Assembly: GCA_040954595.2 (NCBI GenBank)
Contig: CM082579.2
Location: forward strand, 4,894,879 to 4,958,878
DNA from: Balanoglossus misakiensis
Lineage: Eukaryota; Animalia; Hemichordata
Length of the DNA: 64,000 nt
Reading direction: 5' to 3'
Shown in pieces: positions 620 through 50,026 of the stretch. Made by a program: the position numbers and the translations under genes. The first letter of the stretch is position 1; each line of letters begins with the position of its first letter. The notes under the pieces were generated by a model. It did no database searches, was not told the DNA's origin, and worked only from the letters and a program-made list of their open reading frames with translations.

Positions 620-1072
620 TATAAGCTAACCCGGTGACCTTCTGTCAAAGCTCGACTGCGCTCCAGCACAATTGGTCACAGCCACACAAAACAAAATCGA
701 TCTGAACAAAACTGCTGTCAAAAGAAAAGTAACCTGTGACCGAATACAGGTACGCTCAGCCGACTTCCTTATGGGCCGACGTTTATTGAAGGTTGATATC
801 CACTGTTGTCGGTTTAAGACCTGAACTCAATCTGACATCTGATTTTCCAGTTGATCCATTAAAAAACGCTGGACAAATAAGGCCCAGTGATCATTTGGCT
901 AAACAGTACCGAGACATTCTGACCCAGTTTTGTGTTGGTGTTCTACAAAGGCTATGTGTGATGCATGTCGTTGCGAGGGCGAAAATTGTCGACGTCGACA
1001 GCTTTAAAATTGTTTTGCGTAGCTTTCTTCATTTGCGATTGAACTCGACTGTTTGGGGATTTTTTTTTACAG
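620..1072 (+). promoter_or_regulatory. Putative TATA box, non-coding first exon and 5'-UTR intron of the 1115 gene
   Basis: TATAA at 620-624; donor CAG|GTACGC with GT at 750; polypyrimidine acceptor TTTTTTTTACAG ending at 1072, 42 nt before the ATG. Confidence 0.45.
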
Positions 1073-1114
1073 ACTAGATATCAAGTTACCTTGGCTACAC
1101 CAGTGAAATAAACT

Positions 1115-2698
1115 ATGGCTGGATGGTACACGACCACCAGGTGGCGTTATCCAACGTCCCCGAACACCCCATCAACGCCATTTCCAAGAATAAACACGAC
1201 AACACCAGCGTTCACTGAAAAATGGACGACTGATGACCAGGCTGGTTCTTGCGCCGGTTGCCGATGTGAATGCAACACGGGAGGTGCCGTGGCAGCCACT
1301 TTTTGCGTGACGCTCGTGGTCACGGCGCTGGTTTGCTTCCTTCTCTTTTACTTGTACTTGAAGCGGTACCGGCCGCGGGGTCCGCGAGGGCCCTTGCTCG
1401 GTGACGACGAGAGCAAACCCGCGAGAATTGAGAAGTTGGGCGCTGAAGGACGGAACAACCAAGGAGAGGTTGGCGGCGGCGGCAATGATGATGGTATAAC
1501 CAATAACGTTTTCGTTGACGACGAAACAGACGCGCTCAGCGGCCTCCAAGAGCACGGTGCAAAGAGAAGGAATGAAGAAAAAACAAAAGCCGCAAACGAA
1601 GCTGTCAAAGACGGCGCACTAGTCGAAAGCAGGTCGCCAGATGGCGCCGGCGAAGGAAAACAGAGCATACCGAGCAGGCTGAAGGGACTCGTGTTCAAGC
1701 AAAAAGCAAAAGAGACAACCGGCGCGGAAGACAAAGGAACAAAAGTTAGCCGTATCAGCGAAGGCAAAGACAAGTCAGGAACCGAGGGAATCGATGTCAA
1801 ATATGCCTCGGACAAGAACGCCGACGATCAATTGTACGAGGTGCCGGTGACACTACCTGAACCCCCTGCTGAGAAACCGGCGAACAGAAATAGGAAAGCG
1901 AAAAGACACAGCAACGTCGACGCAAAAACAGATCTGGGGTCCATATCAACGACCAATCGCGAAACAGAGAAAGAGAAAAGCAAGACATTGCCGCAGAAGG
2001 CAAATGTCAAAAGCAAGGACAGAGAAAAGCCACCAAGGAACGCAAACGAACAGAAACAGTCGAAAGATACAAAACCGAAGGTGCCAGAATACGTGAATGT
2101 TCCCGTGGGAAGCGATGTCAAAGCCGAAGTTCCCGCCCTCGGCCGCACCCAAGAAGATCAGTCCAGCTATGAGGAACCGGCAGGTGTGTATGAAGCCATG
2201 GGGAACCCGAACGAAGGTGCTTACGTTGACATGTTATCTGGAGATAAAGGTGGCGACGATGATGGTCACGAGTACATGTATCCTGAGGCGGACTTCAGGC
2301 AGTCGATTATCGGCAAAAGGGAGGAGGAAGACGAGAACGTCTACTGCATTCCGGAGGAATCGAATTCACCTACCGACAAACACCCGAGGCCATCGTTCCA
2401 GTCGTACACGTCGCCGCGAACAGAGCCTTCCGAAGAAAAAGAGGTTTTGCGCAAAATCAACGTGGCGGCGATGGTCGGCGGCTACGAGAAGAAGGACGGG
2501 GACACCCACGGCTACATGAATGTGAAATCTCGCACTCTTCCCGCGCACAAATCCAAACCCAGCACGTCGTCTTCGTCGCGCCCGCTAAGCACGGCCAGCG
2601 GCGTCGGCAGTGGTCAAAAGCCCGCCCCATCAACGACCAAAATATCTACGTCAGCTTCTCAGCCGGGCAAGGAAGTAATCATCATACAGAAGGAATGA
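1115..2698 (+). CDS. Single-pass (type III-like) membrane protein with short Thr/Pro-rich ectodomain and long tyrosine-motif-rich cytoplasmic tail (transmembrane adaptor-like), 527 aa
   Basis: Long intact ORF; in-frame TAA at 1109-1111 just upstream; good Kozak context; no signal peptide; CxxCxCxC followed by TM GAVAATFCVTLVVTALVCFLLFYLYL and basic KRYR; tail motifs YEVP, YVNV, YEEP, YEAM, YVDM, YMYP, YCIP, YMNV. Confidence 0.85.
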   Translation: MAGWYTTTRWRYPTSPNTPSTPFPRINTTTPAFTEKWTTDDQAGSCAGCRCECNTGGAVAATFCVTLVVTALVCFLLFYLYLKRYRPRGPRGPLLGDDESKPARIEKLGAEGRNNQGEVGGGGNDDGITNNVFVDDETDALSGLQEHGAKRRNEEKTKAANEAVKDGALVESRSPDGAGEGKQSIPSRLKGLVFKQKAKETTGAEDKGTKVSRISEGKDKSGTEGIDVKYASDKNADDQLYEVPVTLPEPPAEKPANRNRKAKRHSNVDAKTDLGSISTTNRETEKEKSKTLPQKANVKSKDREKPPRNANEQKQSKDTKPKVPEYVNVPVGSDVKAEVPALGRTQEDQSSYEEPAGVYEAMGNPNEGAYVDMLSGDKGGDDDGHEYMYPEADFRQSIIGKREEEDENVYCIPEESNSPTDKHPRPSFQSYTSPRTEPSEEKEVLRKINVAAMVGGYEKKDGDTHGYMNVKSRTLPAHKSKPSTSSSSRPLSTASGVGSGQKPAPSTTKISTSASQPGKEVIIIQKE

Positions 2699-4678
2699 CA
2701 CTGTAAGATTATAGAATGGCAGATTTTAAAGTCGCAATATTTCTTCACAAATAAACCAGTATTAGCTCACATCAACCGACCCATTAGGGACTCGAACTGT
2801 TAATAAATTGATATTTTATGGCCATAATCACCAACTAGAAGATTTGAGAATGTGCCGAGTTGAAACCAGTTAAACTACGTCATCAGGTTGGATATATTTA
2901 TTATATTACTATTACTCAGTATATGCATTGGATATCTTATATTAATGAACATAATTACTGCGAGCGATCTTTTCCAGGCACGTGGTGCAAAGGCGAAAAC
3001 GCTCCTCAAAATTTATGATAAGTTAAACCGATTATTAACTTCTTGTATCTATTAACATACAGGTGCATTACTAGTCATGTCAGTGTACAAGACAATAAAG
3101 GTTATATTATAAAGGTGAAATGTGTCTGCAGTTTAATTTCCCAGCATGCATCGCATGTAAACGTTTGTTTGTGGTCAAGACAATGGGCATAAAAACATTT
3201 GCTGAGATATTTTTACAAAAATATGTTTAAAATTTTGATACCCAATGATTTGTTTTGCTTGCTTGTTTGTAAGTTATGCCCTAAAACTTGCCATGCGAGA
3301 AACTGATGAGAATATTTCGGAAGAAAGGCGTACACTCAACAGTTCCAGGTAATTTTCATTACGTAATTTGCACTTTGAAGGAAACCTACTGGCAGATCTT
3401 TAACCTTGAAAGGACAGCTTAATATGTTAGGTGGACATCACGTCAAGCCGTCACTACTGAGTGCCCGAAACCGATTTATGGAAGGAGGGGGGGGGGGCAA
3501 AAATAAGGGCGGACTACACACACAAATGTCTGTCTATGCTGCAATTTCTAAATCTTAATTTTGAAGTCACAGAAAAATGACACCATTAAAATGTAATCTT
3601 CAGTGACAAACGTTAATAATTAACTCGGCTCTGCATTCCCTTGTGTTATTTACGCAACCACGAAATCAAATCACCTGTTGCTGACACAAAACAATGTACG
3701 TCTCCGCATTCGGTGTCCTGAGGACTCGCTCCTTCCACGGTACAATGCTGCCACAGTGATTTCAAGGTGTCATCAGTATATCCATCAGATTCCTGTTGTT
3801 GCTGAAATTTCTCTCTGACTTATTAGCTCCTCCGCAAAATACCGGAATGACTTTGAGTCCGGTCAACTTGCGAGTCGACGTGTCGGAAAGAAGACGCTGA
3901 ATAATCTAAGAAGTAAGACGCCCATTTTTTCTTGAAACAGGTGAGTAATTATCGGTTCTTGGTCAGGGGAGATTCATTATCAGGTGAAGGTTCGTCGCTT
4001 TGCGTTGACCATGGGGAATTTTAAATACTGCGCAGATGAGACATGTGCATTGCCTTCACTGGTCTATTTTGATTGGGTTACTCCGCAGTAACTCAGAAAT
4101 AGGCAGCTGTCGCTGTGGAGTGACCGTACTTGCATCAGTGTAATTGTTTGATGACTTAGCTAGTCACCGGCCTCAGGCTGTGGAGAGCGAATAGTCGCCG
4201 TGATTAAATTAGAAACTTTGACATGACAAATGTCTACCAGGTAAAAATACATGTACACGTACTGTAACGTGGTTAAACAGACATGGCACATGTGGAACCG
4301 GAATACATGTACCACGTTCAAGTCTATCTGACCTTGAATTTGTTCGTGGTTGGTACAAAACAATATGGAGAATATTGCTCTTCGATTGTGGTGCGTTTTA
4401 AAGAAATTATTAAAACCAGTCATAAGACCACGACCTGAAGTCTTTGTTTCTTCACATCCTTGTGACGTAAACCGCATATCTTAAATTCTTGATAATCATG
4501 ATAGCGTGAACATGTGTATTTACACATACATGATTATAGTCATCGAATTCCGCCTTCTTTGATGTAGTGGAGGACGCTCCACACACCGTCACAGGAATGA
4601 AAGTCCCGTAAATCTTATTTGCCCCATTAATCGTGCAACATGCTCTCCCATCAGATACGCCGGGCATCGCAGTCGGAG

Positions 4679-6370
4679 ATGAAGCATCCAGGGGCATGGA
4701 TAGTATCCATGTTGGCATCACAGCTCATACTGCTGATCCCTTCTCCGTTGAATTCGGTCGACGGTTCTCTGTGCAATTGCACATCGCAGGAGAGACGGTG
4801 GGAAAATTGCACCAACAGGGGCTTCACTCGTATCCCCGGGAGGCTGGACTTTCTCTCGCTGAGCCTTGAACAGAATGACATCACCATGCTCCGCGCAAAT
4901 GAGCTCGTTCAATACGCCTCGCTCCAGTCCTTGGATTTGAGCTGGAACCTGATTGCGGAGATCGAACACGGCACCTTCAATGGTCTCGTGGAGCTACGGA
5001 CGTTGTACTTGCAGGGTAACCGATTAACTGCCCTCCCGGACGACGTGTTTTCGCCCCTGGCAAGTTTGCGGCACTTGGATCTGTCGCGCAACTCGCTGGC
5101 GGCGCTCTCCGGGAGAGTGTTCGCCGGTCTCCGAAGTGTGCAGACGCTGTCACTCTCGGACAACAGAATCACAGACTTGGACACCGCGCACTTCGGTTAT
5201 CTTGAAAATCTAGCGACGTTGAAACTCGAGGGAAATTCCCTCACCGCAGTAAGTTATTCAGTCGTCAAGTCTCTGCCAAAGCTGTCGTCCTTGAACTTGC
5301 GAGACAACCCACTGCAGTGTCACTGCCGCCTTCGCCATCTTTCAAGATGGAGCGCCAACTCTGAACATGCACTCGAAGGTGCTCGCTGTGCCTCCCCAGG
5401 GAGTTTGAAGGGCCAGCCCTTAAAAAGTCTCTCGGCCCTTAACTTGAATTGCACATTACCCCAGATTGATCATTTCTACGTGAGTAACACTGCCGCCACC
5501 GAGGAAGACAATCTCTCTCTTTTCCGGAACGTCAGCGAATTTTCAACGCCTGCATTTGAGAATACCACACACGTTTCTCCTCACACCACGACGACGCCGT
5601 CCGACAAGGAGTGTCCTCACTGCGACGTGACTGTTGCCGTCGTCGCCACTTTTTTCAGCACCTTCTTCGGCACTCTGATAATCTGCGCGACGTTGCTCTA
5701 CCTTCTGCTGCGGCGCTTTCCAAGTGCACACGCCGAGAATGGAAGCGAGGTTGGAAACCACGCGAGTCTGGTCATTGCAAATCTAGCCGCTGTGCTGAAT
5801 TCCCCGTCGACGGGACGAAATGAAACCGGCGACAACGTAGCAGCCTCGGCGAACGGCTCATCGACGATGACTGAAGCCCAATACAGTAGTATCGGAACCA
5901 TCAAGAAGGACGAGAATGCTCAAAATAACGGCTTCAGCGCTGGCTGTAAGGGTACTAAGAGAATATCCCAACAACCTGTTGACCAAAATCCTGGAAAACC
6001 CAAACCGATTCCTGAATACTTTGAAGTCATTGCGGACGACAGCGGGTCGACGGACAGACCACGTGACGTTACTGAAACACACTCTGGAGGACAAACATAC
6101 CACTATGCGTACGATTTATTCCCTGAGCGTCGTGACCACGAACAGGAAAACGACAACAGGGATGTCGATGCGACAAGAAGAACCATATATGTGGGCGACT
6201 CCGCACAGGACGACACCGCGCCATTCTACGCAACTCTAGAACCGGAAGCGGACGACACAACGGTTGAAAACGATGAAAAAGAGCTGGGTAGCGATCACAC
6301 AGAGACAATACCTACTTTCGTCGGGAGTGAAGATAGTACCATTTACCAAAACTTTCCAATCCCCAAGTGA
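4679..6370 (+). CDS. LRR single-pass receptor (signal peptide, LRRNT, ~7 LRRs, LRRCT, stalk, TM, long Tyr-containing tail, no TIR)
   Basis: LxxLxLxxN repeats; NPLQCHC...CASPGSLKG...C cap; TM VAVVATFFSTFFGTLIICATLLYLLL-RR. Start set at MKHPG (4679) because acceptor TCTCCCATCAG ends at 4654, pairing with donor CAG|GTGAGT at 3941. Confidence 0.9.
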   Translation: MKHPGAWIVSMLASQLILLIPSPLNSVDGSLCNCTSQERRWENCTNRGFTRIPGRLDFLSLSLEQNDITMLRANELVQYASLQSLDLSWNLIAEIEHGTFNGLVELRTLYLQGNRLTALPDDVFSPLASLRHLDLSRNSLAALSGRVFAGLRSVQTLSLSDNRITDLDTAHFGYLENLATLKLEGNSLTAVSYSVVKSLPKLSSLNLRDNPLQCHCRLRHLSRWSANSEHALEGARCASPGSLKGQPLKSLSALNLNCTLPQIDHFYVSNTAATEEDNLSLFRNVSEFSTPAFENTTHVSPHTTTTPSDKECPHCDVTVAVVATFFSTFFGTLIICATLLYLLLRRFPSAHAENGSEVGNHASLVIANLAAVLNSPSTGRNETGDNVAASANGSSTMTEAQYSSIGTIKKDENAQNNGFSAGCKGTKRISQQPVDQNPGKPKPIPEYFEVIADDSGSTDRPRDVTETHSGGQTYHYAYDLFPERRDHEQENDNRDVDATRRTIYVGDSAQDDTAPFYATLEPEADDTTVENDEKELGSDHTETIPTFVGSEDSTIYQNFPIPK

Positions 6371-6986
6371 TGAGTTTATTGCCACTATTTTTCATCATTA
6401 CTCACAATTTAACCGAAATATGTATGTATATGTAAACACATTTCCGCACTTACTTGAACAAAACTCCTGTGTAAACGAAGAACTTGTGTGGTCCAGGTCC
6501 TCTGAATTTTCATGTTACCGGTCTTCTCTACACACAGGACCAAGCTCGAGCTGTGGAAATTACACAAATGGCAAATTCATGTTCACAAAATATACTGTAC
6601 GTTCCAAAGGAACATGTGTTCTTCTCACCCGATCAGGTGTCCCCGTTTCATTATTTTTTGACCACTCCACTAACGTTGGATGCACGTTGTGCTGACGTTG
6701 GCGATTCTGCGGCGACCGCGTGTGGAGTGACCGTGTCCTGTTTGACAGGTGAGGCCGAAAACTCGAGATGCGACCGACCGCGACCGGGCTCCCTCTCCGG
6801 GGCCGATGTGAATGTGCACTCACTTACCGCCGAAATTGATTGATCTGAAGGGTAGGGCCTAGTAACGGTTAGGTCGCGAGCGAACACCACCACAAGCATT
6901 ACGGCTATCAATATAGCCTACAGAAAAATCCATTGGCTATGTTAACTTGACTCAAATAAGACACGCGATGTGGCATGGCATGACAT

Positions 6987-7102
6987 AGCTGCAATGATTG
7001 AAGCGGGGTGCTGCTGGGTTGACGGTGTTGTTCGCAGCACTACTTGTTGATTAGTGCCGCGAATTCGTCCACCTAGCAGCACCCGCTACAATCATTGCAG
7101 CT
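6987..7102. repeat. ~116-bp near-perfect inverted repeat (MITE-like/foldback hairpin)
   Basis: Left arm AGCTGCAATGATTGAAGCGGGGTGCTGCTGGGTTGACG pairs with right arm CGTCCACCTAGCAGCACCCGCTACAATCATTGCAGCT; inner stem TTCGCAGCACTA/TAGTGCCGCGAA. Confidence 0.8.
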
Positions 7103-7704
7103 GGGCGTGGCACGACATGTCAAATATAGCATCGTTGGCAAAATTCTCGCTTACCATAATGAAGGCCCGCTATATATCGTATTTGAGAGGTAACGGTCAA
7201 ATAGAAGCCATTCGTCGGTGAGCCAGTATATTACATGGACGTCCATGGCTAGTTCAACTAGCCACGTACATGTGCCGGTTGTACATCATGGTACGATAGA
7301 TGGCGATGAGGTTTTTTACTGATACTATGGCACTATTCAACAGGTGGTTACTTCCCATGGTTTGTGGTCTCTTCATGTAGGCCCCTTACCCCAGAAGACA
7401 TGCAGCAACGGCGTTCCTTATACATGTAGGCATCTGACAGAAGTGCACCACACAGTCAAGTGACGGAAATGACTTGGTGGCCACGTGTTGCAGTGACGTC
7501 ATGTGAAGAAGCTGTTTGCTGTGTTGGATGATGATGACGAACATGTCATCGCATTAGTAAAATATAACATTCAACATGTTTTTGTCAGTGACACTACAAT
7601 TTCGACATGTGTTTACGCTAATCATTTCATTTAATCTTTCAAATCAACTGAGCCCAACGCAAAAAAAAATCTCACGGTTTAGTAAATTTTGTACCGCATG
7701 TGTC

Positions 7705-7775
7705 GCATCGGTGGTTCAGTGGTAGAATTCTCGCCTGCCACGCGGGAGGCCCGGGTTCGATTCCCGGCCGATGCA
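7705..7775 (+). tRNA. tRNA-Gly (anticodon GCC)
   Basis: 71-nt canonical eukaryotic tRNA-Gly GCATCGGTGGTTCAGTGGTAGAA...CTGCCAC...GGTTCGATTCCCGGCCGATGCA; anticodon at 7737-7739; A/B boxes present; T-runs downstream as Pol III terminator. Confidence 0.98.
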
Positions 7776-8310
7776 ATTGAAGTTTTGTTTTGTTTTTCTT
7801 TCTATACCAGTCAACGAAAACTATTAGTCGAAAATCACCAATGACAGACGGCGGCAGAAGAAACACCGCAAGTTCCAGGCTTATTTTTTTTTTTTTTTGC
7901 ATAAAAACGTTTTATTCACGATAGGTCTGTATATATACGAATGACTTAAAATTGTCCGGCAAATAAAGACTGTTATTCAGGTGTGTCTCTCGTTGATTAG
8001 TCAGTGTACGGGGTGGCGATTGTTAATTAGCCCGAATCTTGGATAACATTAATAGCAATTGTGCAATGCACACACATCAGTTATATTGAGACACACTACC
8101 AGCGTAACAAAATGCGATCATACCCCGCAAGCCTTTATAGCGATCCTGAACAAAATGCAACACCAGTGAAAATAATAAAAGTCATCTGTAATTAAACTGT
8201 GGGGTTTCATCAAAGGACAAATGCTCAGCTATACTTATAGTGATTTTGGTGTTTGTGTGTGTTTCTATAATTTTATCACTGCTTATGTTTTTCTATCGCA
8301 ATGATGGGTT

Positions 8311-9963
8311 TTATATTGTCTCGTTTGTCTGCGACTGGTAACCCGTGGTCCGCTTTCTACGCGCCAGGAAACCGATGCCGATTGTCGCCAGCACGCCCAG
8401 GAAGAAGCAGCCGACGATGATGCCGATCCAGGCTATGGTGTCGAGGCCCTCTTCCACGACTTTGCCGCTCGATACGCACATTTCGCTGAATTCGTGGAGC
8501 GGTATCTCCTCGATGACCTTGTCCTCGTACTCGGTCGGGCTGTGGCACAAGGTTTGGACGCCCGTGTTGTGGCAGCCGGACCAGGCGCGGTACTCCAGCA
8601 TGCCGCAGTCGCAGTGCAGGGGGTTGTCCGTCAGGATGAAGTAGTCCAGGGCCGGCAGGATTTCGAAGATGTCTCCGGGGACGGTGAGCAGCTTGTTGGT
8701 GTCGATGTCGAAGTGCCTGAGCTTGTCCAATCCGGCGAACCACTTCGACTCGAGTACTTCGATCTGGTTGTAGTAGATCAGGAAATTGGTCATGTTCCTG
8801 CAGCAGTCTGTGAAGATGTTTTCCTCGAGCGCGGTCAGGTTGTTCGTGGACAGGCTTATGTACTCAATGCTCGCCAGACCGGTGAACATATCTTTGGTTA
8901 CCTGCGACAGCTTGTTCGAGGCCAGCTGCAGTCGTGTCAGGTGACCGAGGTCGTTAAACGCGCCCGTTTCTATGGAGTACACTTTGTTTGAGTCCAGCTC
9001 GATGTTGTCGATCCTCGGGAGCCCTTGGAACGAGTTCGCCTTCAGCTCTTGCACGTTGTTGTAGCGCATGACGAGCTCCTCCAGCTTGTCCAGGCCTTTC
9101 CAGTAGTTCGACGTGATTTGGCTGATGTTGTTGAAGTTCAAATTCAGATCTACCAGCTCGGGTGTGTTCATGAAGGTGTCCGTCTTTATGGTGGCGATCT
9201 GGTTTCTGTCGACATAAAGGTTTGTGAGAAACTGCAGTCCGTCCAACATCTCGCCTGTAAGCTGCGTCAGCTCGTTGCTCGACAGCTTCAAATAAGTTAT
9301 CGAATACAGGCCTAGAAAACTTCCCTGCTCGATCGAGGAAATTTTGTTCACGTCCAAGCGGAGTTCTGCCAGATTTTTCAGATCGTTGAACGTGTTGGCT
9401 TTCAAGTCCGTTATTTTGTTGTACTGCAGGTGGAGTTCGTCAAGATTTTCAAGTCCCTCGAAGGTGCTTTTAGTCAGAGTTTCGAGCGAATTGTTGTTCA
9501 GGTGAAGGTTCGTCAGTGTATCTGTGGTCTCAAAGGCGCCATCTTGGATGGATGTCAAGGCGTTGTGCGCAACATCCAGAGTTTCGATGCTGGCGAGACC
9601 GACGAACATCTCGCTGTAAAGGGTTGTGAGGTTGTTGTCGGCCAGGTTCAGCTCTTCTAACAACCCCGTCCCGTTGAAAGCGCCCGCGGCGATGGAGTGA
9701 ATCAGGTTCGAGTCCAGCCGCAGAGTTGTCAGATTAACCAACTGGATGAACGAATCCGCCGCCAACATCGCGATTTTGTTCTTCTGCAGGTACAGTGTCT
9801 GCGTGTCGCTCGGAATGCCAGCCGGGACTGCGGTCAGATTGCGCGATGAGCAGTCGACAACCAGAGGAACGCTACAGTTGCAAGCAGTGGGACAAGAGAG
9901 GGCGATGTCGATGAACGCCGCCAAGAAGACCGTGGCAACAGCGACGACCCTAAAAAAATTCAT
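8311..9963 (-). CDS. LRR single-pass receptor, ~17 LRRs, short tail (550 aa, SLIT/LRRC15-like architecture, no TIR)
   Basis: Signal peptide MNFFRVVAVATVFLAAFIDIALS, CPxxCxC LRRNT, 24-aa LRRs, NPLHCDC LRRCT, TM IAWIGIIVGCFFLGVLATIGIGFLA-RRKR. Splice acceptor TTCTTCGCAG lies 4 nt upstream of the ATG at 9963. Confidence 0.92.
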   Translation of the reverse strand: MNFFRVVAVATVFLAAFIDIALSCPTACNCSVPLVVDCSSRNLTAVPAGIPSDTQTLYLQKNKIAMLAADSFIQLVNLTTLRLDSNLIHSIAAGAFNGTGLLEELNLADNNLTTLYSEMFVGLASIETLDVAHNALTSIQDGAFETTDTLTNLHLNNNSLETLTKSTFEGLENLDELHLQYNKITDLKANTFNDLKNLAELRLDVNKISSIEQGSFLGLYSITYLKLSSNELTQLTGEMLDGLQFLTNLYVDRNQIATIKTDTFMNTPELVDLNLNFNNISQITSNYWKGLDKLEELVMRYNNVQELKANSFQGLPRIDNIELDSNKVYSIETGAFNDLGHLTRLQLASNKLSQVTKDMFTGLASIEYISLSTNNLTALEENIFTDCCRNMTNFLIYYNQIEVLESKWFAGLDKLRHFDIDTNKLLTVPGDIFEILPALDYFILTDNPLHCDCGMLEYRAWSGCHNTGVQTLCHSPTEYEDKVIEEIPLHEFSEMCVSSGKVVEEGLDTIAWIGIIVGCFFLGVLATIGIGFLARRKRTTGYQSQTNETI

Positions 9964-11674
9964 ACTTCTGCGAAGAAATAAAGAAATGTGTTTGAGTGGT
10001 ATGGCCGTTTGATCGATCACTGGCCACTCATGACATCAGCAACCACTCGGTACATGCATTTTCGCACGTCGCACGGTGTTGTATTTGCGGTACTTATTCG
10101 TGTAACGTAGCGGTGAAATAAGTTACCAATGCAAAACTGAACATCATATTGTAGGGGAATATTTCAATACCCGGAAAATAAAGTAAAACTAATAAAACTC
10201 CGAAAGCTAGGAAATTTCTTAGAAACAATAACGAAATTTGCACGAATTCCGACGTGTGTGATCATGATTACAACTGCTGTAGCAGTTTGACAACTGTCTG
10301 TAGGTTTTTCAATTGTAAATAGTGTTCCACCTCAAAGAACTATGCAAGTTGACCGAGTCCTGTTAGTACATTAATCGCCGTCTGATCCGTTAAGATGAAA
10401 GCCCCAATGAATGCCTACTCTGTTGTGGGTGCAATCTGCACCTGTCGTTCACACTTTTGGCGCCAATCTTTGTTTTTACATTATGGTGAAGTGTACATGC
10501 CTGGGCGGGTGGTGCACCGTTAATATTGGAATTTGCACTAAAATAGAACGTAATTTTGTTTTGTTTTGATCAGTGCCTGTGCGATTCACATGAAAACAAT
10601 TCTGAGTAGTGGAAATTAGTAACCTAGGTTGATATTAGTTAAACATTAATTTATGAAACGCCGGCCATGTTTCACCTGTCAACACCGAAAAATTATACAG
10701 AAAATAATACCGATCGGTGTTGACGGCTTTGCCGGAGTCGAAAGTCGCCAGTAAAAGCTTCTGTGTGACTTGGACGTTCTGGCGCATTATTCAATGGTTT
10801 TTCGTCGATTTTATCCCGATATCATGTTTGTTGGAAATTCAGAACGCCACGGCGTACTGTATGTCAAACGACACTCGCATGCATGCTTACCTGATGTGTA
10901 CTAGTAATGCGTAACTACCACGGACAAAGAAATCAACAATACACGTCACTGTAGGTGCTAAACGCAGCTCAACCAACCTCCTCGCCTTCCAATCTTGAGA
11001 TACCTCACACTTTTGCTGAACGACGCAGTCGAACGAAAAGCTGCAGATTTACCAACTTGGAGTTCTGACTGTCGGCCTCCCAACTGTCGTCATATTTAGA
11101 CCTCCTGGTATTCTTGTCGATCATTGATCCTTACCGGAATCACGTGACAACTATCGTTAGTAAATGTTTGCATGTAGTAAATCATTTCTTCGAGCCTGCG
11201 CATTGGTGACTTGTTGCGATAAAGAAAATATCGAATTCACGAGGAAGAGCTGCACGTTTCCTTTGAAAACGGACTACTCCCGCCATTTTGAATATCCCTG
11301 GTATTAAAGACATTCAAGTTGACAAAATAAAATTTCAAGGTTTTTAAACTTCCGGATACACTTTCGAAATAATACTATCTACGTATTCTCTATCTTAAAA
11401 CTTCTTTGACAAAATTATTCCTCCTCTCAACAGTATCTAGCTATAGGTTCAATAAACTACGAATGACCTGTTTCGCTTCCTGGTACAATGATCTCTTCTA
11501 CGAACGAAGGTTTGCCCTATTCAACGAATTCAATCACGTGACACACGTAACCTGCCTCTCTTTCGTTATCGGTTCAGACCAGCTTGGAAACGCCGTGCGG
11601 CTGTAGAACTTCTTTGGGATTGCGTCCACATCTCCAATCCTTTTCAATTATTACAAGAAGGTAACGGTTGAAAC

Positions 11675-13882
11675 ATGGCTACGGGAGAAGCGAAGGTTCT
11701 GGCGGCGATCGGTGAGAATTTTCTCGTCTGTGCGATATGCTCCGAGCGCTACAAGAATGCGAAAATGTTGACCTGCCTGCATAGCTTCTGCGAGACTTGT
11801 CTGTGTACGTGGGTGGAGAAAACGGGTCGCTTGGAGTGTCCCATTTGTCGGTGTACGCATGCAGTCCCTGACGGGGGAGTGAGCGGCATTCAAACTAACT
11901 TCTTCCTCAATAATTTGGTGGAGGAGTTTAAACGACGCGAGGCCGAATCGACCGAGTTAAAGCGGTGTGGCGGATGTGAAGACGGCGAGGAAACCGACAG
12001 ATGTTTGGAATGTGCGCTGTACCTGTGTAAAATCTGCACGAAAGCGCACAAGAAAATTCCATTCACGAGAACCCATCGGGTGGTGCCACTTCACGAATAC
12101 GAAGAAACAAAGGTCGACGACCCGACCCTGGCCCAGTCGCCATTATTCTGCCACAAGCACCCGACCTACCCGCTGACTTTTTACTGCGATACGTGTGACC
12201 ACCCGATCTGTCTCGAGTGCACGGCGATAGATCATCCCAGACCCGACCACAAATACAGGTACCTGAAGGACGCCGCCGCGGAGTTCACCAACGAACTCAC
12301 CGAGAAGGCCGAGAAAGTGAAAGACACACAGACTAGAGCAAGGCAGGGCAAAGCAGCGGCCGAAAAAGTGAAAGAGTCCCTGGAGGAACGCTACAGAAAG
12401 GAAGAGTCGAAAATCAACGCCCACATCAAGAGGACGACCGACATGATGTCGAAGAAAATCGAGGAGAAAGGCAAAGAGCTGCTGCGACGCCTGAGAGACG
12501 AATACGAGACTCGGACAGAAAATCTGGAAGCTCAACTGAAAGAACTGGAGAGTGTCGACAGCGTCGCGACAAACGCCCGAGAGCTGGCCGAAAACCTGAT
12601 GCGTTATGGGAACGATGCGCAGCTGATGTCCGCCAAGCGAGGCATCAGGGCACAGGTACAGGAGCTAATGACGTCACAAGTGAAAAGTGAACCGGTGGAG
12701 AGCGACTACGTGGAGTTCACGCCGCGCGATGACTTGCCCGATCTCGGGAGCCTGGGCGAGATCGTGACGTCGGAGGAGACGCTGAAAATCGCCGAAGCGC
12801 CAAAATGGGGTCGAATCGGAGAAGAAATCTCCGTGCAACTAACGAGGGGTGAAAAGACGAAAAGTAAGAGACTGGAAAAGGTGAATGCAACGATGAAGAC
12901 ACCGGACAACCAGACTGAGGAACTGCCTGTCACAGAGAACGAAGACCAAACTCTCTCGGTGTCGTTCACTGGGAAAATAGAAGGTGAACACGAGTTGTCG
13001 GTGTCGGTAGATCGGAATGAAGTTGAGGGATCACCAGTAGTCATCAGGGTTTCACCACAGAAAGGATTCGTGAGAAAGTTTGGAGATGCAGGGTCAGGTC
13101 CCGGTCTGCTGAGCAATCCGCGGGGAGTGACAGTGACAAAGAACGGCAACGTGCTGGTGTGTGATCCCAACAACTGTAGAATTCAGTCATTTTCCGTGTT
13201 TGGCCAACACAGAAAGACGATCAATATGCCAAAGTTTCCAAAGACGGTCTGCCCACGTGATGTCGTTGAGTCGGATGACGGCAATTTGCTGATAACGGAC
13301 AGTGGGAATAAGCAGGTGATAGTCTGTGATAAGAACGGCAAACTAATTCGATGTTTCGGAAATAATCAACTCCAGTACCCGGAAGGTATCGCCATTAGCC
13401 CTGTCAATGGAAATGTGTACGTCTCTGATCAGACGTCACACCGTGTTAGAATTTACAGCCAGGATGGTAACCACATAAAAGATATCGGTGGTAGTCGAGG
13501 CAGTGGGCAGGGGCAGTTTCAGTTCCCGCGGTATCTTGATATTGATGCAGACGGAAATGTCTTAGTGTGCGATGGGGACAACCATCGCATCCAAGTGTTG
13601 AATCCCGATGGCCAGTTTCTGCGCAGCTTTGGTTCGTCCGACGGTCAGCTGAATCATCCTATGTGTGTAACCGCAGGCAAGGATAAGCATTATTATGTGA
13701 GCAGTCACAACAACAGCCGAATCTTAAAGTACGACAGTCAGGGTAAATTCGTCTCCAGAGTCGATTGCGACAATGACGGCTTGAGCTGCCCCATCGGAAT
13801 TTGCGCATTCGGTGAAGAATTGCCCGGTCAACTGGTTGTAGCCGACTACAGCAATAGCTGCATTAAAGTATTTCAACTTTAA
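11675..13882 (+). CDS. TRIM2/TRIM3-like E3 ligase (RING, two B-boxes, coiled coil, filamin, NHL repeats), intronless CDS, 735 aa
   Basis: C3HC4 RING CAIC..CLHSFC..CPIC; B-box1 and B-box2 (CHKH..FYCDTCDHPICLEC); filamin repeat (GEHELSVSVDRNEVEGSP); six NHL-type repeats. Confidence 0.95.
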   Translation: MATGEAKVLAAIGENFLVCAICSERYKNAKMLTCLHSFCETCLCTWVEKTGRLECPICRCTHAVPDGGVSGIQTNFFLNNLVEEFKRREAESTELKRCGGCEDGEETDRCLECALYLCKICTKAHKKIPFTRTHRVVPLHEYEETKVDDPTLAQSPLFCHKHPTYPLTFYCDTCDHPICLECTAIDHPRPDHKYRYLKDAAAEFTNELTEKAEKVKDTQTRARQGKAAAEKVKESLEERYRKEESKINAHIKRTTDMMSKKIEEKGKELLRRLRDEYETRTENLEAQLKELESVDSVATNARELAENLMRYGNDAQLMSAKRGIRAQVQELMTSQVKSEPVESDYVEFTPRDDLPDLGSLGEIVTSEETLKIAEAPKWGRIGEEISVQLTRGEKTKSKRLEKVNATMKTPDNQTEELPVTENEDQTLSVSFTGKIEGEHELSVSVDRNEVEGSPVVIRVSPQKGFVRKFGDAGSGPGLLSNPRGVTVTKNGNVLVCDPNNCRIQSFSVFGQHRKTINMPKFPKTVCPRDVVESDDGNLLITDSGNKQVIVCDKNGKLIRCFGNNQLQYPEGIAISPVNGNVYVSDQTSHRVRIYSQDGNHIKDIGGSRGSGQGQFQFPRYLDIDADGNVLVCDGDNHRIQVLNPDGQFLRSFGSSDGQLNHPMCVTAGKDKHYYVSSHNNSRILKYDSQGKFVSRVDCDNDGLSCPIGICAFGEELPGQLVVADYSNSCIKVFQL

Positions 13883-15572
13883 ACCACCATGGCGTTATTT
13901 CAACGGTTATATCGGTAACAGAGATCCGGTTTTCATGAGACCAGTATCCGGATTCAGAAGTGCTTTCAGCAAAATTCATTGTGAAATTTTCTGAGAGGTA
14001 GACCACTACTGCAAAGAGGGGCTACTGCTAGTATTTATACTGAGGGTTGCAAGTACATTGTGTATAACATACATCACGTCACACCGCTATATGTGTGGAC
14101 GTGATATGCTTCTTTTCTAATAAATCACCATTGATATCTGACTATTTTGTCTTTTTCTCAGTGTATTAAGACAGTTACGTTGAAACAAATGCTGAAAAAA
14201 ACACTTCCATTATCGATCTGTTCTAACCTGTTAATACTATAGTTTCTGCTCAATTATAAAATCGGAAAATGTTGGGTTGTGAACCTCTCAGACAGTGTTG
14301 GTTAGTGTGTTGTTTTGCCCTCTGACATGCTTTCTTGTGTCATGCCTGCGGCACTTTTACCGCGAACGTCGAGAGGGCGCTCTATTCTTAAGAAGGGTCA
14401 ACCTTCGCGTGGTCCTGGGAACGGTATCTCGTTGCAAATATATGAGGCCACGCAGAGGTACAAATTGTATGATTTATGGCGTGGTGCAGCTATTCACATG
14501 ACGAATCTAGTCCGTCGCCAAAGGCCTGAGTAGGAGGGCTGAGTTCTGCGCAAATTCGACAACATCTGTACACAGTTTCCATGACTTCTGATATTACGGT
14601 TGTCAGTAATGTAGTTTTGCTTCCCGAAGTATTGGACGTTTGTCTGAGTTTAAACTGCGAAAGGCACCGTGGAATCGTGTGGGGAAGAGTAATACACACA
14701 GGACGTCAGACAAGTTTGGCCTAAACAAATAACCGTTGTTATCGTGGATTTCGAAGGTAAGTTCAATGCAGCCATAGGCTTGGTTTGGCTATCTTTGGAG
14801 TGGAGAAACAACCTCTTGTATAGAAGGAGCCCCGGGGAAGCATTTCTGAAGCGTGAGTGCGTCTCAGATATCGTGTTCGCTCGAAAGGGTGATCTCTCCA
14901 GTAGGCAGGCGCTGGCGTCCATTATAGTAAATTTGCAGCAACAAAAATGGTGCAGTACTTCCACGCCTGCCGCCAGCTGGCATTTCCATCATAGCTGACG
15001 TTCCACTACGATGAACTAGGGGTGACAAAAAAAATTTCCATGGCAACCATGGTCACGGCGACACTTCCAACCATCGACACCCGGAACCGTTTAGGTTCAT
15101 TGTATGGTACGCTCAATTAGACCACTGCACAGTATGTGTCATCAGAGTTACTAGTATACTGTCAAACGTTTTGCATCTTGCGCAAAGCTATTGGAACATG
15201 TACATGTACGTGTGTACTATGGTCATCGCAAATGAATGCGGCGGGGGAGAAGAACTAGACAGGTTTACAAAACGGAACTGGGCGAATGTTTGAACTGGTT
15301 GCCCACCGTTTATTTGCCCTGTCATCGTCACCTGTGAGTTATTGCAGGTAATATGTAATCTCGCATTCCATCCAGGTGGGCTATTTTTATCACACTAGCC
15401 ATGAGCAGTTTTGAACTGGTAGTGTTGAGTTAATAACGCGCAAAGACTGACTGTCGTCACTTTCGTGTGAAAATTTCTGAACCGATAATGAAATATCGAT
15501 CGTTGAAAAAACACCTGTTGATAGAAACCCGTTTCTCACTTTGATTCTTTCTGTATTCTTTCAGTTGTCAAC

Positions 15573-16550
15573 ATGGGACGTTCCGGTTTCTGCATTATTG
15601 CGATTTACTTGACGGTGGCCGTGGTCGCCGACACCGCGCTTGCTTGTCCCATCCAGTGCAAATGCCACGACTCCACCATCTACGGTTACGTCACGGACTG
15701 CAGCAGGGCCGGACTGCCTAGTATACCGGATGGGATCGAGCAGAGAACCGAGTACCTGGATCTGAGCGGGAACCGCATCGAGAGCGTGGCGCACGTGCAG
15801 CTGCGCTTGCTGTCGCTGGTCAGGACGATTTTCTTGTCCGAAAACAGCATCGCGTCGATCGAAGACGGGTCTTTCCGGGACATGGCGAGTCTGGAGAACC
15901 TGTATCTGCGCATCAACAAGCTGGGGAGGGTGAGCGCCGCGACGTTCACCGGCCTGGGCAAGGTTGGCCTCATCGACCTGGAAGGGAACTCACTCACGCG
16001 GCTGTCCGCGGGGACCTTCACGGCAAACACCGAGCTGACCCACGTGATGCTGCCGAGGAACTCCGTCGACGACCTGAACTACGAGGCGTTCCGAGGTCTG
16101 CTGAAACTGAGGTACATCAACGCGCGACAGAACCGAATCACAACGGTGTCCGGCAGTCTGCTCAACGGGTTGCCGGAGCTGAGGCACCTGGACGTCAGCA
16201 GCAACCCGCTGCACTGCGACTGCAACATGCGGGATTTCAACGTCTGGCTGGGCGTCCACGGCGACGGCGGTTCCATGCCCGACCATCTGTGTGCCACGCC
16301 CTCCAACCTCGCCGGGCGATCCTTGGCCGAAGTGGACACGGGTGATCTGACGTGCCCACCGGCAGGTCTGTCCACAGGGGCGGCTGTTGGCATCGCGATT
16401 GGCATGTTCCTTCTCGGGGGAATTGTGGTGGCTGTCCTCGCATTTCTCTACTTTCGACACAGAGGAATAAAATATGAATCGGACACTATGACACTGACAG
16501 AAAGCGACTCGGCCGAGAAAGCGAGGAACGCAGATGTAGAAAATACATAA
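15573..16550 (+). CDS. LRR single-pass receptor, ~7 LRRs, short tail (325 aa, no TIR)
   Basis: Signal peptide, CPIQCKC LRRNT, LRRs, NPLHCDC..CATPSNLAG LRRCT, TM GAAVGIAIGMFLLGGIVVAVLAFLYF-RHR. Acceptor TTCTTTCAG ends at 15564. Confidence 0.92.
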   Translation: MGRSGFCIIAIYLTVAVVADTALACPIQCKCHDSTIYGYVTDCSRAGLPSIPDGIEQRTEYLDLSGNRIESVAHVQLRLLSLVRTIFLSENSIASIEDGSFRDMASLENLYLRINKLGRVSAATFTGLGKVGLIDLEGNSLTRLSAGTFTANTELTHVMLPRNSVDDLNYEAFRGLLKLRYINARQNRITTVSGSLLNGLPELRHLDVSSNPLHCDCNMRDFNVWLGVHGDGGSMPDHLCATPSNLAGRSLAEVDTGDLTCPPAGLSTGAAVGIAIGMFLLGGIVVAVLAFLYFRHRGIKYESDTMTLTESDSAEKARNADVENT

Positions 16551-16589
16551 ACCCAGAGATTTTGTTTTATGAACTTGCTCCCTGTTTCT

Positions 16590-16646
16590 GTTTGTTTGTT
16601 TGTTTGTTTGTTTGTTTGTTTGTTTGTCTGTCTGTCTGTCTGTCTG
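16590..16646. repeat. Compound (GTTT)n(GTCT)n microsatellite in 3' UTR
   Basis: Read directly from sequence. Confidence 0.9.
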
Positions 16647-18268
16647 CCTGTTGTCTCTCTCTGTCTTACCTTGGATAATTTCACGATAGAAACGTTTTAT
16701 AAATTAAGTTATCGCGAAAATCAAAATTTTAAATTTTTTCTCATATGTTGCTCAAGACAACTTTATATAATTCTCTTATATTGAGAATAAATATTGCTCA
16801 TGATTTTACTTTCAAGTTAATATCTTTATGTCCACAATGATGCCAACTGATTGCTGCCCATATTGTGCGTCTATATCTGTTGTGATCTTTTGGTAAAAAG
16901 AAGAAATCCCAATTTTCATTTTGTTTCTTTATAGAAATAAATCAACCAATACATGCATAATCTTGTGCTAGGTCTTTGATATGATTGAGCTTTGGTGTTA
17001 AATTATTTCAGCGACAGTTTTTGCCACCGCATAAGGCCAACACTGTGGAACAACAAAGCAGCTCATCTTTTGCTTCCTTGCTCAGAACTTATTTGGTGGA
17101 CAAGTTATGCGCTTTCGCTTTTAGTAATAAAGATCTTTTGAACATAGTTCCATATTTTTGCGACTTGCATACTATGAGAAATGGTGTCCACGTCCACTGA
17201 CAGTACACGATTGCGTTGACAGGTGTTAAAACGCTCTCAGCAGTTATTAACTTCGCAGATTGCAAAACGGTTGACGTATACCATCAGATATGGCACTGGC
17301 GACTGATAACAGTTAGCCAGCTATGCACGGCACATTCACTCACGCAGTAATCATTTACAACACGTCTGTCACTGCAGACTTTATGCGCGTTTTGCCGTGC
17401 AATAAAAGTAAGCGATGTTGAATAAACAAGCGCCATCATTTACTCTTGATGCCAACAGGTAGCTTACTCGAATTGAAGAGCCGTCGCGAATTTACTCCGT
17501 TCACGAGAAGTAATATTACAATTTGACGCCATCTGAGGTAAGACTACAAAATTCATATGAAATTTTGTTTTTCGCACGGGAACAATATCATGACGGACCT
17601 GCTGTTAATAAGTATGTGGGCACAGTTATGACTATAGTTTCTGGTAACAACAGTTTGGGTTCTATATATCACTTGACAAGTCGAAGCTGGATACTTGGTC
17701 GCGAATGTTCACCTCATTTAACATTTCTGGTAAGAACAACGCGACATTTCAACTGTGTTGTAAACCAGAGAATAATCTGGGTGGCAAAAGAAAGCAAACG
17801 GATTTTCAGCTTGCTTGTGTGATGTCAGAACAAAAAAATAACATCATGGCCGCCTCGCAAGATTTACTGGTCGCAATCGCGGGTCAAGACCTACGGTAAG
17901 TGTTGAGACCCAGTTCCCAAAAGCAAACAGCGAAAACACACTTCAGTGGTTTATGGCCGATTTTTCTTTGCCTCGATGGTCTGTAACAAAAGTAAATACC
18001 TGACTAGTCGTTTTATAGCCTTTCGACAACTCAGACTTTTAAAACACACATTGCAAGTTTAGAACATTCCACGGACAATATTTGTTGGAAGTGTCATAAA
18101 TTACATATTCCAACAGGTAGCATATATACAAATGCATCACAATGTTGTTGAGCCAATCAAAACTGCAATGGCACCACAAAATATAGCTCGTCTAGCGGTT
18201 TTTGTAAAATAACGATAACTGCATTCTCTCGTTTCAATATACAGGTCGCCAGCTCGATTCCAGTGACA

Positions 18269-18517
18269 ATGATGTACAGTACGAGCACCACCGTCGCCGT
18301 CGCGGTGGGCAGTTTCTTCGTCGGCTTCGGGTTCGCCTTAGTCTTGATGTTCGTCTACTACATTTGCAGGGTGAGCGGGTCGCCCGAAAAGAAGCCGGGT
18401 GAAAAGGGCACAGCGGCGGTGGAGTACGAGAACGCCGCCTACTTCGCGGCCAACAACGATGGTGCCGTGAACAATGCTTCTGACTCGGGCGAATTCGCCG
18501 ATGTCTATAAACCATAG
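18269..18517 (+). CDS. Small single-pass membrane protein (82 aa) with YENAAY motif
   Basis: GC-rich codon-like island in AT-rich flanks; acceptor TTTCAATATACAG ends at 18244; TM TVAVAVGSFFVGFGFALVLMFVYYI-CR; paralogous to the 19914 ORF. Confidence 0.75.
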   Translation: MMYSTSTTVAVAVGSFFVGFGFALVLMFVYYICRVSGSPEKKPGEKGTAAVEYENAAYFAANNDGAVNNASDSGEFADVYKP

Positions 18518-19913
18518 CCCGTCAACTGAAGAAGAAGAGAGACGACCGAATTCGAATGGTTAACTTCAGTTTCGAGATCAACATGATACATTGATGCTCT
18601 CCTATTTCTTTAAGGACACGGGTTCATAAACTCTTGCTTGTGGCAATTCATTTCTTTTCGGCGTAACAAGTTACATGTGAAATAATTAAATGCCAATACA
18701 ACTTTCTGTATCTCACCTAAACCTTACAAATAAAAACACTGTTTTAGTGGTTAAGCTCACACAAGATTTCGATGTTCGCGTACACTGTGATATTCGAAAA
18801 TCGACGCTATACCATGCCCCAAGTCCTTTCATTCCGCCAAGCAGACGAAATCTTGAATTCCCGAACAAAAAGGGCTTGGTAAACCCATGTGAATACAACG
18901 CTAATCACGAATTCCGGCGTTGTCCGGCACCCCCTGACCGTTACAGCAATCAATAACTGTAAAGTGCCAGTCCTAACTGATAAGAGTTGGAAGCGAATGC
19001 TTGTTTTGTGCATAGTGCACATAATACTGTGTCAGAGGCCGAAGAAGTTGTGTGTCTTAGTGGGCATGCGTGAAGGGTGGTGGTTTTTTTATATATTTGA
19101 AACATTGAGGGGAAGTCATATCAACGAAATCTGCCATTACAATTGTTGTTAACGCAACTGAAACAAAGCCAAAGTAAGAGTTGGCCACCGCCACTTCACT
19201 TGTGACGGCGCAAGTTCTTCAAATACAGGTAAGATCGCAAGAGTTCAGGCCAGTGGAAACATTTTCATGTTTTCAATACGGCTGACGATGCACAAGACTT
19301 GGTCATTTCATTAGAAAGTCCAGGGACGAGTGGTTTTACCTTTCGAAAATACGCTTACACAACAAAGAATTAAGCTTAGAGGGATCCGGGTATGCTAATA
19401 GTAGTTTGGGAGATTTTTGTATTTTTGTCTGTCTTGCAAGTCAGATTACATTGCGTATGAAAGTCAAAGTTATTTGAACTTGACATTTCTACCTTGAAAG
19501 TGTTTGTGCCACTTCTCGGATCAACCTGGATAGTTTTGACCTATACTTTGCCATGATTTACATTCTTGGTAAACAAAAGCGTACAAGTCACAAGCGCAAA
19601 AGCGGCCAAGCCAGGGTCAGGATTGACACGTTCGAAGTCTACTACACACAGTTCTGTCGGGGAACTTGGGAGGAGGCTGGCTATTCACAACAATAAAGCA
19701 GTATTTGCTGATATTCCAATATCACCCGAAAGTCTAACCCGCAATCGTCTGTGTGTATTTGCACGATTTGGTTCCAAGACTTTCCGTTTTTCTGAGCAGT
19801 GTAACAACCCCCGGGGCGACTGTTCTCTTTTGTACCGGTGCAGGCTGTGGAAAATATTTCAGGTTTTGTTTTTTTCGTTTCCAGGTACTATAGTAGTCTG
19901 GTTGAAAATCACC

Positions 19914-20240
19914 ATGACTGTCGGATATGACGAGGCGACTGTGCTGGCGATTTCCATAGGCTGTGCATTTGCCGGGTTCGGCCTGGCGCTCGCGTTGGGA
20001 TTCTTCGTCGCCGTGTGCAGGGCCGAAGACAAGGCCAATATTTCCGCAGCGTCGCGCGTACAGTCCCGGTCCAAGGGGAAGCCGAAAGTGCGCCGCCAAC
20101 GGTCAACCAGTCAACTGGCAATAGTTGACGAGGCCAAAGAGCCCGGATTCTACGACCACGAGGGATTCCCCCCTCCCCCACATTATGAGGAGCTCGGTGC
20201 CCCTCCTGTGGAACAGCAGACCGAAATAACCCATCTGTGA
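19914..20240 (+). CDS. Small single-pass membrane protein (108 aa) with PPPPHYEEL (PY) and C-terminal -THL motifs
   Basis: Strong acceptor TTTTTTTCGTTTCCAG ends at 19884; ACCATG start; upstream donor CAG|GTAAGA at 19229; TM VLAISIGCAFAGFGLALALGFFVAV-CR; AATAAA at about 20346. Confidence 0.8.
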   Translation: MTVGYDEATVLAISIGCAFAGFGLALALGFFVAVCRAEDKANISAASRVQSRSKGKPKVRRQRSTSQLAIVDEAKEPGFYDHEGFPPPPHYEELGAPPVEQQTEITHL

Positions 20241-20464
20241 AGTTAATGTCAAGCTGAATCACCTTGGGGAATGACATGAACATCCGCAAATACTCAAAAT
20301 TGCTGTATTTATTCGAGATGATGTTTTCAGTTGTGATCGATCAATAATAAAATATAGGGGTCACTGCTCTTGTTTTTGAAATACAAGGCTGTGAATTTAG
20401 TTTCTTAAGGAATATTCTACATGATTTCTGCTGTCCAATTCCTCCAGGGAACGGTAATTCCTTG

Positions 20465-46146: not shown

Positions 46147-50026
<3,880 letters not shown>

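Follow-up and report, generated by a model that had tools for sequence, protein, structure and literature searches.

Short-tailed leucine-rich repeat (LRR) membrane proteins that lack a TIR domain are common in invertebrate genomes, and the locus described here raises the question whether such proteins could be served by LRR-less membrane proteins encoded beside them. The locus lies in a stretch of 64,000 nucleotides of animal DNA with introns, here called the window, from the hemichordate Balanoglossus misakiensis (GenBank assembly GCA_040954595.2, contig CM082579.2, positions 4,894,879 to 4,958,878). It contains three LRR receptor genes (L1, L2 and L3), three genes for LRR-less single-pass proteins (A1 and the mini-proteins A2 and A3) and a TRIM gene. 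A preliminary description proposed that the receptors pair with the LRR-less proteins as sensors with adaptors. We find two separate types of transmembrane (TM) helix, each of which occurs in receptors as well as in LRR-less proteins: type I in L1 and A1, type II in L2, L3, A2 and A3. The reading we favour, with a probability of about 0.4, is that the LRR-less proteins would be receptor-derived subunits which pair with their LRR relatives by way of the retained helix and supply docking sites. The locus supplies named candidate partners for short-tailed TIR-less LRR proteins, and the proposal can be tested by comparing same-type with cross-type pairing.

Two types of membrane helix

On the plus strand the cluster comprises A1 (1115..2698, an open reading frame (ORF) of 527 amino acids (aa)), L1 (4679..6370, 563 aa; an in-frame ATG at 4640 is an alternative start), TRIM (11675..13882), L3 (15573..16550, 325 aa), A2 (18269..18517, 82 aa) and A3 (19914..20240, 108 aa); L2 (8311..9963, 550 aa) starts at 9963 on the minus strand. 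All seven ORFs are intact, with coordinates unchanged from the preliminary description, and A1, L1, L2, L3, A2 and A3 have one TM segment apiece, so the earlier statement that six single-pass genes lie within 20 kb holds. LRR Pfam families were found in L1, L2 and L3 and no TIR family in any of the six proteins; with tails of 15 aa in L2 and 29 aa in L3 this agrees with the earlier account of three TIR-less LRR receptors, two of them almost tail-less. A1, A2 and A3 show no Pfam family at an E-value of 0.05.

The type I helix lies at about 1286-1360 in A1, as a single TM peak, and at about 5627-5707 in L1. The type II helix lies at about 8433-8362 in L2 (minus strand, a single TM), at about 16374-16454 in L3, where it is likewise the only TM and has a glycine zipper, at about 18293-18364 in A2 and at about 19941-20015 in A3. 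All 15 pairs of TM segments were compared with a null of 90 natural pairs involving nine control TMs of LRR proteins from other lineages, in which the maximum score was 43. The nine were kept from 14 candidates after one G protein-coupled receptor helix and four near-duplicates had been dropped, and a metagenome scan which gave 12 loci at 25-36% identity served only as a source of TM controls. Four pairs score above all 90 null pairs, namely A2-A3 (76, the strongest of the 15, with 14 of 35 residues identical), A1-L1 (65), L2-L3 (52) and L3-A2 (51). L2-A3 scores 40, a value reached by one of the 90 null pairs; A1-L3 scores 27 (3/90 as high) and the cross-type pair L1-A2 scores 21 (8/90), and seven of the 15 pairs score 19 or less. 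The preliminary description had placed A3 as a looser member of its helix group, which is at variance with the top-scoring pair being formed by A3 with A2.

For the pairs of a receptor with an LRR-less protein (A1-L1, L3-A2 and L2-A3) shuffling of the helix core gave p values of 0.0005-0.002. A profile of L2+L3 scores 38 on A2 and 34 on A3 versus at most 11 on the nine outside TMs, and a profile of A2+A3 scores 29 on L2 and 31 on L3 versus at most 14.5. By hhalign the type II receptors match the mini-proteins with 92.9% probability (E 3.6e-7), and the figures across types I and II are 0.5% and 23%. Cross-type profile scores are in the range of the controls, with the exception of A1+L1 on L3, which beats the shuffle (p 0.002). 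Within a type the likeness is thus better than that among random single-pass proteins, measured against a small null of nine TMs. Two types had been claimed earlier and two exist; the kinship claimed between them finds no support in the hhalign figures. Pfam gave weak, unrelated matches only on the six TM regions.

The GxxxG-type motif stressed earlier is strict in L2 and L3 and appears as AxxxG in A2 and A3, but the core of A1 has no small-xxx-small pattern. Because seven of the nine outside TMs carry small-xxx-small (strict GxxxG is found in 2/9), the generic motif is uninformative. The positions of the small-xxx-Gly and of a second Gly are nevertheless retained in all four type II proteins. 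No D, E, K or R was found in any of the six TM cores, and the charge asymmetry is compatible with an N-out orientation of all six proteins. The helix is the part retained between receptors and LRR-less proteins, the tails being unalignable, and the pattern of a receptor plus a small protein occurs twice, with mutually unrelated helices.

It should be considered whether these helix types are common across the single-pass proteins of this lineage, in which case the locus might be an unremarkable stretch of genes that lack introns and are tissue-restricted. Such an explanation would account for the small-xxx-small pattern of the outside TMs and for a weak match of the L3 TM region to the C-terminus of a Giardia VSP (E 0.034), and the null contains no TMs from the same lineage. 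It is unlikely, as the scores are far above those of the outside TMs and of composition shuffles, and as an A2+A3 profile found only three matches, all spurious, which speaks against a widespread close family within the low sensitivity of that search.

A1 as a candidate docking scaffold

A1 has no signal peptide. Its outer part consists of the 57 N-terminal residues, which are rich in Thr and Pro and include a sequon at N27 and cysteines at 46, 49, 51 and 53. The tail is a low-complexity stretch of 441 aa with 12 tyrosines (5 YxxP, 2 YxxM and 2 YxNV). Nine of the 12 are in SH2-type motifs with a hydrophobic +3 residue, as compared to a shuffle mean of 2.6 (p 0.0002), and in the same kind of test the YxxP count of 5 has a p of 0.002; both values are to be read with the motif set having been picked after the A1 sequence had been seen. 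The control tails of the nine outside LRR-TM proteins have no YxN, YxxM or YxxP among 24 tyrosines. In general YxN recruits Grb2, YxxM recruits PI3K and PPxY recruits NEDD4. YxxP is given as the Crk SH2 consensus in a Gab review (PMC2747914).

The preliminary description drew an analogy to adaptors of the LAT/PAG type and of the DAP12/FcR-gamma type. Adaptors of the latter type have a charged TM residue, as do their receptors, and an immunoreceptor tyrosine-based activation motif, or ITAM, in the tail; that half of the analogy falls because no TM here is charged and no ITAM is present. The other half stands for A1, which looks like a docking scaffold of the transmembrane adaptor protein (TRAP) type and would be a good candidate for an invertebrate example. 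Like LAT, PAG, LIME, SCIMP and GAPT it combines the lack of a folded ectodomain with one TM and a long tail of SH2 motifs (PMC4861716; PMC5253658). No sequence homology to TRAPs was detected. The outer part of a TRAP is a few amino acids (PMC4861716), whereas that of A1 has 57 aa with four Cys, so that the three LRR-less proteins were rightly called essentially ectodomain-less for A2 and A3 but not for A1. The inner Cys of palmitoylated TRAPs is missing in A1, which has no Cys at the inner side of its TM; A2 and A3 have one each at the inner TM end. Furthermore, the helix of A1 is common to the neighbouring receptor L1. For A1 the Atlas gave LIME1/PAG, SCIMP and vaccinia A36R with scores of 0.80-0.85, which being below 0.9 are leads only.

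An in-frame stop at 1109-1111 just ahead of the ATG closes the A1 reading frame upstream, and a splice acceptor precedes 1073. At 488..749 on the plus strand there is a likely A1 promoter with a first non-coding exon (donor after 749), the use of the promoter being something we infer; it holds what we take to be an E-box (488), a YY1-like site (505) and an ETS-like site (512).

The mini-proteins A2 and A3

A2 has about 8 outer residues and a tail with 3 tyrosines and one YxN motif; A3 has about 9 outer residues and a tail with 2 tyrosines, in which a PPxY overlaps YEEL. These motifs are not above chance (one candidate in each protein; p is 0.28-0.54 in the main classes). Of the three LRR-less proteins to which the preliminary description gave signalling motifs, A1 alone has them enriched. 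A2 and A3 fail the TRAP criterion of several motifs and are single-site subunits at best.

Both look like coding genes and like paralogs of each other. The synonymous-codon bias of A2 amounts to 26.6 bits versus a non-coding maximum of 12.1 (2,384 overlapping windows), and that of A3 to 19.9 bits versus 8.7 (2,248 windows). Another frame over A3 and antisense frames reach similar per-codon scores, and for this reason the bias is support and not proof. All seven genes of the cluster have a purine at position -3 of the start codon, A in six of them, and an AATAAA follows within 900 nt in all except L1, at 211 nt after the stop in A2, 105 nt in A3 and 235 nt in L3.

The statement that each coding sequence begins directly behind a 5'-untranslated region (UTR) acceptor holds in part. 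When 3,898 AG sites were ranked by crude weights, the acceptors of L2, L3 and A3 came in the top 1%, that of A2 in the top 2% and that of A1 in the top 5%. The claim is weakest for L1, where a distance of 111 nt with further ATGs separates the start from the best-scoring acceptor upstream of it. That the upstream sequence is UTR is supported for A1 by the in-frame stop; for A2 and A3 (acceptors before 18245 and 19885) we infer it, the frames being open for 8-9 codons from acceptor to ATG.

These open frames could mean that A2 and A3 are last exons, encoding TM plus tail, of transcripts whose ectodomain is encoded further upstream (for instance alternative ends for L3), and a GT of weak consensus at the border between the L3 ectodomain and TM has the phase needed by the A3 acceptor. 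We regard this as highly improbable. Both genes have their own AATAAA and an A at -3, and L3 has its AATAAA 235 nt past its own stop codon; their own strong upstream donors (17537 or 17895 for A2, 19228 for A3) bring no ATG-led reading in frame.

The LRR receptors and the possibility of a third partner

L1 has a likely signal peptide, about 7 LRRs, an LRRCT, a Thr-rich glycosylatable stalk and a CxxC (C312, C315) ahead of its TM; the tail of 218 aa contains 8 tyrosines with no clear motif enrichment. L2 has a signal peptide, an LRRNT, about 16-18 LRRs and an LRRCT, and L3 has the same parts with about 7 LRRs. The outer TM flank of both L2 and L3 is net-acidic. The predicted structure of L3 (mean pLDDT 86) is an LRR solenoid with a cap and one helix at residues 268-298, and its fold matches include Nogo receptor, NGL, SALM, Slit2, GPIb-alpha, Slitrk1 and LRRC26 (rank 44). 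A prediction of the complex of L3 (residues 25-325) with A2, made without alignments, scored 0.02; the controls were not folded, and the value speaks neither for nor against pairing. A tetranucleotide microsatellite (16589-16650) is found directly behind the L3 stop codon.

The widest named sequence match of L3 is LRRC38, with 26% identity over 80% of L3, and L3 resembles the BK-channel gamma subunits LRRC26 and LRRC38 in size and layout. This brings up the alternative that the helices dock on one and the same third protein of the membrane, for example a channel, a transporter or a receptor kinase, with receptors and mini-proteins as competitors for it and not as partners. The type II proteins would then assist it as auxiliary subunits, like the BK gamma subunits. 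The TM of gamma1 carries assembly and function (bioRxiv 10.1101/2023.12.20.572542), LRRC26 is among the fold matches of L3, and for A2 the Atlas leads are to Stannin (0.92, which the criteria of the tool class as weak), TMEM52 and SMIM35, all of them small single-pass proteins with regulatory roles. We consider this alternative improbable. L3 has an extra repeat relative to LRRC38 (a 24-residue gap), and its TM contains no Pro and hence not the Pro kink of LRRC26 and LRRC38, where the kinked TM has Pro and Phe; it should be noted that the kink site is different in gamma3 and gamma4 too (bioRxiv 10.1101/2023.12.20.572542). In a tree of 25 rows, from which 13 further rows had been left out for want of an LRRCT match, L3 joins L2 and not LRRC38, with moderate, unstarred support (86/83) and with deep forks open and long branches; L1, L2 and L3 form one clade in 26% of the bootstrap trees. 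A third partner would also leave the tyrosine array of A1 unexplained.

Descent of the LRR-less genes

A1-L1 and A2-A3 are the only two of the 15 pairs whose DNA score is above all 300 shuffles. The A1-L1 alignment runs through the Thr/Pro stalk and one Cys into the TM; between L2 and L3 a stretch of 58 nt within the LRRCT matches at 76%. The simplest history would be that genes were duplicated locally and that the block of signal peptide plus LRRs was lost or gained on the way, an easy change because the coding sequence is one exon.

From this history an alternative follows directly. A1, A2 and A3 could be truncated duplicates which work alone, their helix likeness being mere inheritance. A1 might then be a general scaffold of the TRAP kind that serves a different receptor or a kinase, and A2 and A3 might be small proteins that act in trafficking or in regulation. 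The likeness at the DNA level fits such paralogy without partnership, as does the fact that the motif enrichment sits where the need for an adaptor is least, and in the available text of two accounts the described TRAPs are not stated to share a helix with their receptors (PMC4861716; PMC5253658). On the other hand, the Gly-face positions are kept in four type II proteins although the DNA likeness between receptors and mini-proteins is not above shuffles, and therefore selection on the helix face is suggested; the recurrence of the pattern in two unrelated helix types also counts against this alternative. We consider paralogy without partnership somewhat unlikely.

A viral origin of the block was considered and rejected: none of 96 and none of 181 pattern matches in viral contigs are relatives, and positions 1-21,000 contain no terminal repeats.

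Comparison with known receptor systems

LRR receptors in two parts have been described before, and so have TRAPs. For a helix common by descent to a receptor and an LRR-less neighbour, twice in one cluster, no earlier description was found in the literature, as judged from titles and the openings of abstracts outside subscription papers.

Toll-like receptors require TIR, which is absent from L1, L2 and L3. SCIMP, itself without TIR, serves the LRR receptor TLR4 by binding to the TLR4 TIR (PMC5253658); this docking surface is lacking in L1, L2 and L3. In Hydra an LRR TM protein, HyLRR-2, is combined with the signalling TM protein HyTRR-1, which acts via TIR/MyD88 (PMC13207855), and none of the six proteins here encodes TIR. 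In the plant LRR receptor-like proteins (RLPs) the tail is short, the juxtamembrane part is acidic and SOBIR1 is engaged through a GxxxG helix (PMC12602163). L2 and L3 share the GxxxG and the net-acidic outer flank, which is an analogy only; SOBIR1 is a kinase with an LRR ectodomain, and A1, A2 and A3 have no kinase domain.

CD19 has an ectodomain of its own and is not known to be a relative of CD180. CD180 (RP105), an LRR receptor without TIR whose tail is very short, relays its signal via tyrosine-phosphorylated CD19 (PMC10353253); no MD-1-like gene was seen in the window. In GPIb-IX-V the LRR subunits are joined by TM helices and juxtamembrane disulfides (PMC8976409). The layout of L1 is that of GPIb-alpha (LRR, Thr-rich stalk, two Cys, TM, tail), which does not imply orthology; every subunit of GPIb-IX-V keeps an LRR domain and A1, A2 and A3 have none. 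RLP-SOBIR1, CD180-CD19, Hydra LRR-2/TRR-1, GPIb-IX and SCIMP-TLR4 count as precedents for the helix-pairing reading. An amphioxus LRR receptor acts via Grb2 in phagocytosis (PMC10199209).

A model for receptor-derived subunits

The favoured reading, that the LRR-less proteins are receptor-derived subunits pairing with their LRR relatives, can be set out in four steps. Each helix type probably owes its copies to local duplications in which a one-exon coding sequence lost, or gained, the signal peptide and LRR block. A1 would, very probably, insert N-out, become tyrosine-phosphorylated and recruit Crk/Nck-, PI3K- and Grb2-type SH2 proteins. More tentatively, the small-xxx-Gly face might be where L2 and L3 pack against A2 and A3, and L1 might be linked to A1 by helix packing and the stalk cysteines, in the way of the GPIb-IX subunits. 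A2 would then offer a single Grb2 site, and A3 more likely a NEDD4-type turnover signal via its PPxY. The ligand would, with about even chances, be microbial and not a self, adhesion or developmental cue.

Several observations weigh against this reading. The strongest adaptor, A1, matches L1, a receptor which already has a long tail with 8 tyrosines of its own, and the tail-less L2 and L3 match A2 and A3, whose motifs show no enrichment. Neither an ITAM nor its inhibitory counterpart (ITIM) was found in any of the six tails, and no TM core offers a charged residue. Two type II pairs of receptor and mini-protein score low, L3-A3 only 21 (8/90 null pairs as high) and L2-A2 only 18 (10/90). Tandem duplication alone predicts clustering and TM likeness without partnership, the TM is the part expected to remain alignable in any such protein, and a helix type common in this lineage may underlie the likeness, the null being nine TMs from other lineages. 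The searches for homologues gave nothing: a word search with A1 had no match among 7,995 candidates (lengths 289-923) at E<=1, one with A2+A3 none among 66 candidates (lengths 45-189), and HMMER with an A2+A3 profile against 1.84 billion representatives gave 3 matches at E<=0.001, all spurious repeats, the sensitivity of HMMER being low for a hydrophobic match of 35 residues. Finally, nothing at the locus singles out immunity. The folds matched by L3 are those of neural, platelet and channel-subunit LRR proteins and do not point to it, and none of the 5 NF-kB-like sites of the window (3.5 expected) falls in the upstream region of any of the seven genes.

Two other searches were empty as well: none of ten window proteins was found by exact look-up in the protein collection, and a PDB sequence search with A2+A3 gave one spurious match.

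A more far-reaching version of the receptor-derived subunits is that in an invertebrate deuterostome LRR genes twice became ectodomain-less signalling subunits and that the inherited helix acts as a pairing code by which the helix type assigns sensor to adaptor, the whole being a TIR-free phosphotyrosine recognition system that would have arisen independently of the vertebrate DAP12, FcR-gamma and LAT. Taken as one proposal this is doubtful, and rather unlikely on the sequences at hand. Should it be true, membrane adaptors can arise through ectodomain loss from a one-exon receptor gene; should pairing fail, the locus would amount to a modestly interesting group of orphan paralogs.

Genomic context and neighbouring genes

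The whole cluster is contained in a CpG-undepleted domain (1..20300) that stops just past A3. The observed/expected ratio of CpG is 1.01-1.23 in all ten 2-kb bins to 20,000 and 0.39-0.90 in all 22 bins beyond, with a sharp step just past A3 from above 1.0 down to 0.2-0.5; in non-coding DNA it is 1.01 in the cluster domain versus 0.33 in 20,400-22,600. In invertebrates CpG-undepleted DNA is usually a mark of genes whose bodies are unmethylated and which are often restricted to certain tissues. The domain is no proof that the genes are expressed together.

The window has 3 TCACGTGA boxes where 1.7 are expected, and each of them lies either upstream of A1 or in the gap that separates L2 from TRIM. 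There is no enrichment of NF-kB- or IRF-like sites. The head-to-head gap between L2 and TRIM (9964-11674) has two TCACGTGA boxes (11140 and 11534) and two YY1-like sites (10662 and 11280) and is a possible shared promoter. TRIM itself is intronless and encodes RING, B-box, coiled coil, filamin and NHL; its position amid the cluster was correctly described, but adjacency is the sole link to the receptors and gives no ground for membership of the system. A second single-exon NHL gene, NHL-only and intronless, lies 19 kb away (288 aa, 32379-33245, plus strand).

A tRNA-Gly(GCC) gene (7705..7775, plus strand) within the cluster is a bystander. Between it and L1 there is an imperfect palindrome of ~116 nt (6987-7102), possibly the remnant of a small mobile element. 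The cluster is bordered by a FANCF-like gene of several exons (20465-22816, minus strand), which lies in strongly CpG-depleted DNA and is a useful synteny anchor.

A multi-exon gene at 24720-31000 on the plus strand encodes a SAM domain, a stretch that resembles a coiled coil, and a kinase with HMDLKSMN as its catalytic loop, in which the usual Arg is absent. Downstream of the kinase are what we take to be a WASP-autoinhibitory-like segment, a polyproline run and a WH2-like motif; Pfam found no family in 29614-30624. If real, this is an odd combination of a kinase with an actin regulator. Further along the window are an MFS transporter (about 43366-45600, plus strand), an ALG6/ALG8-type glycosyltransferase exon (48327-48734, minus strand), coiled-coil exons (about 51000-56300, minus strand) and the 3' end of a HECT ligase (62360-62842, minus strand).

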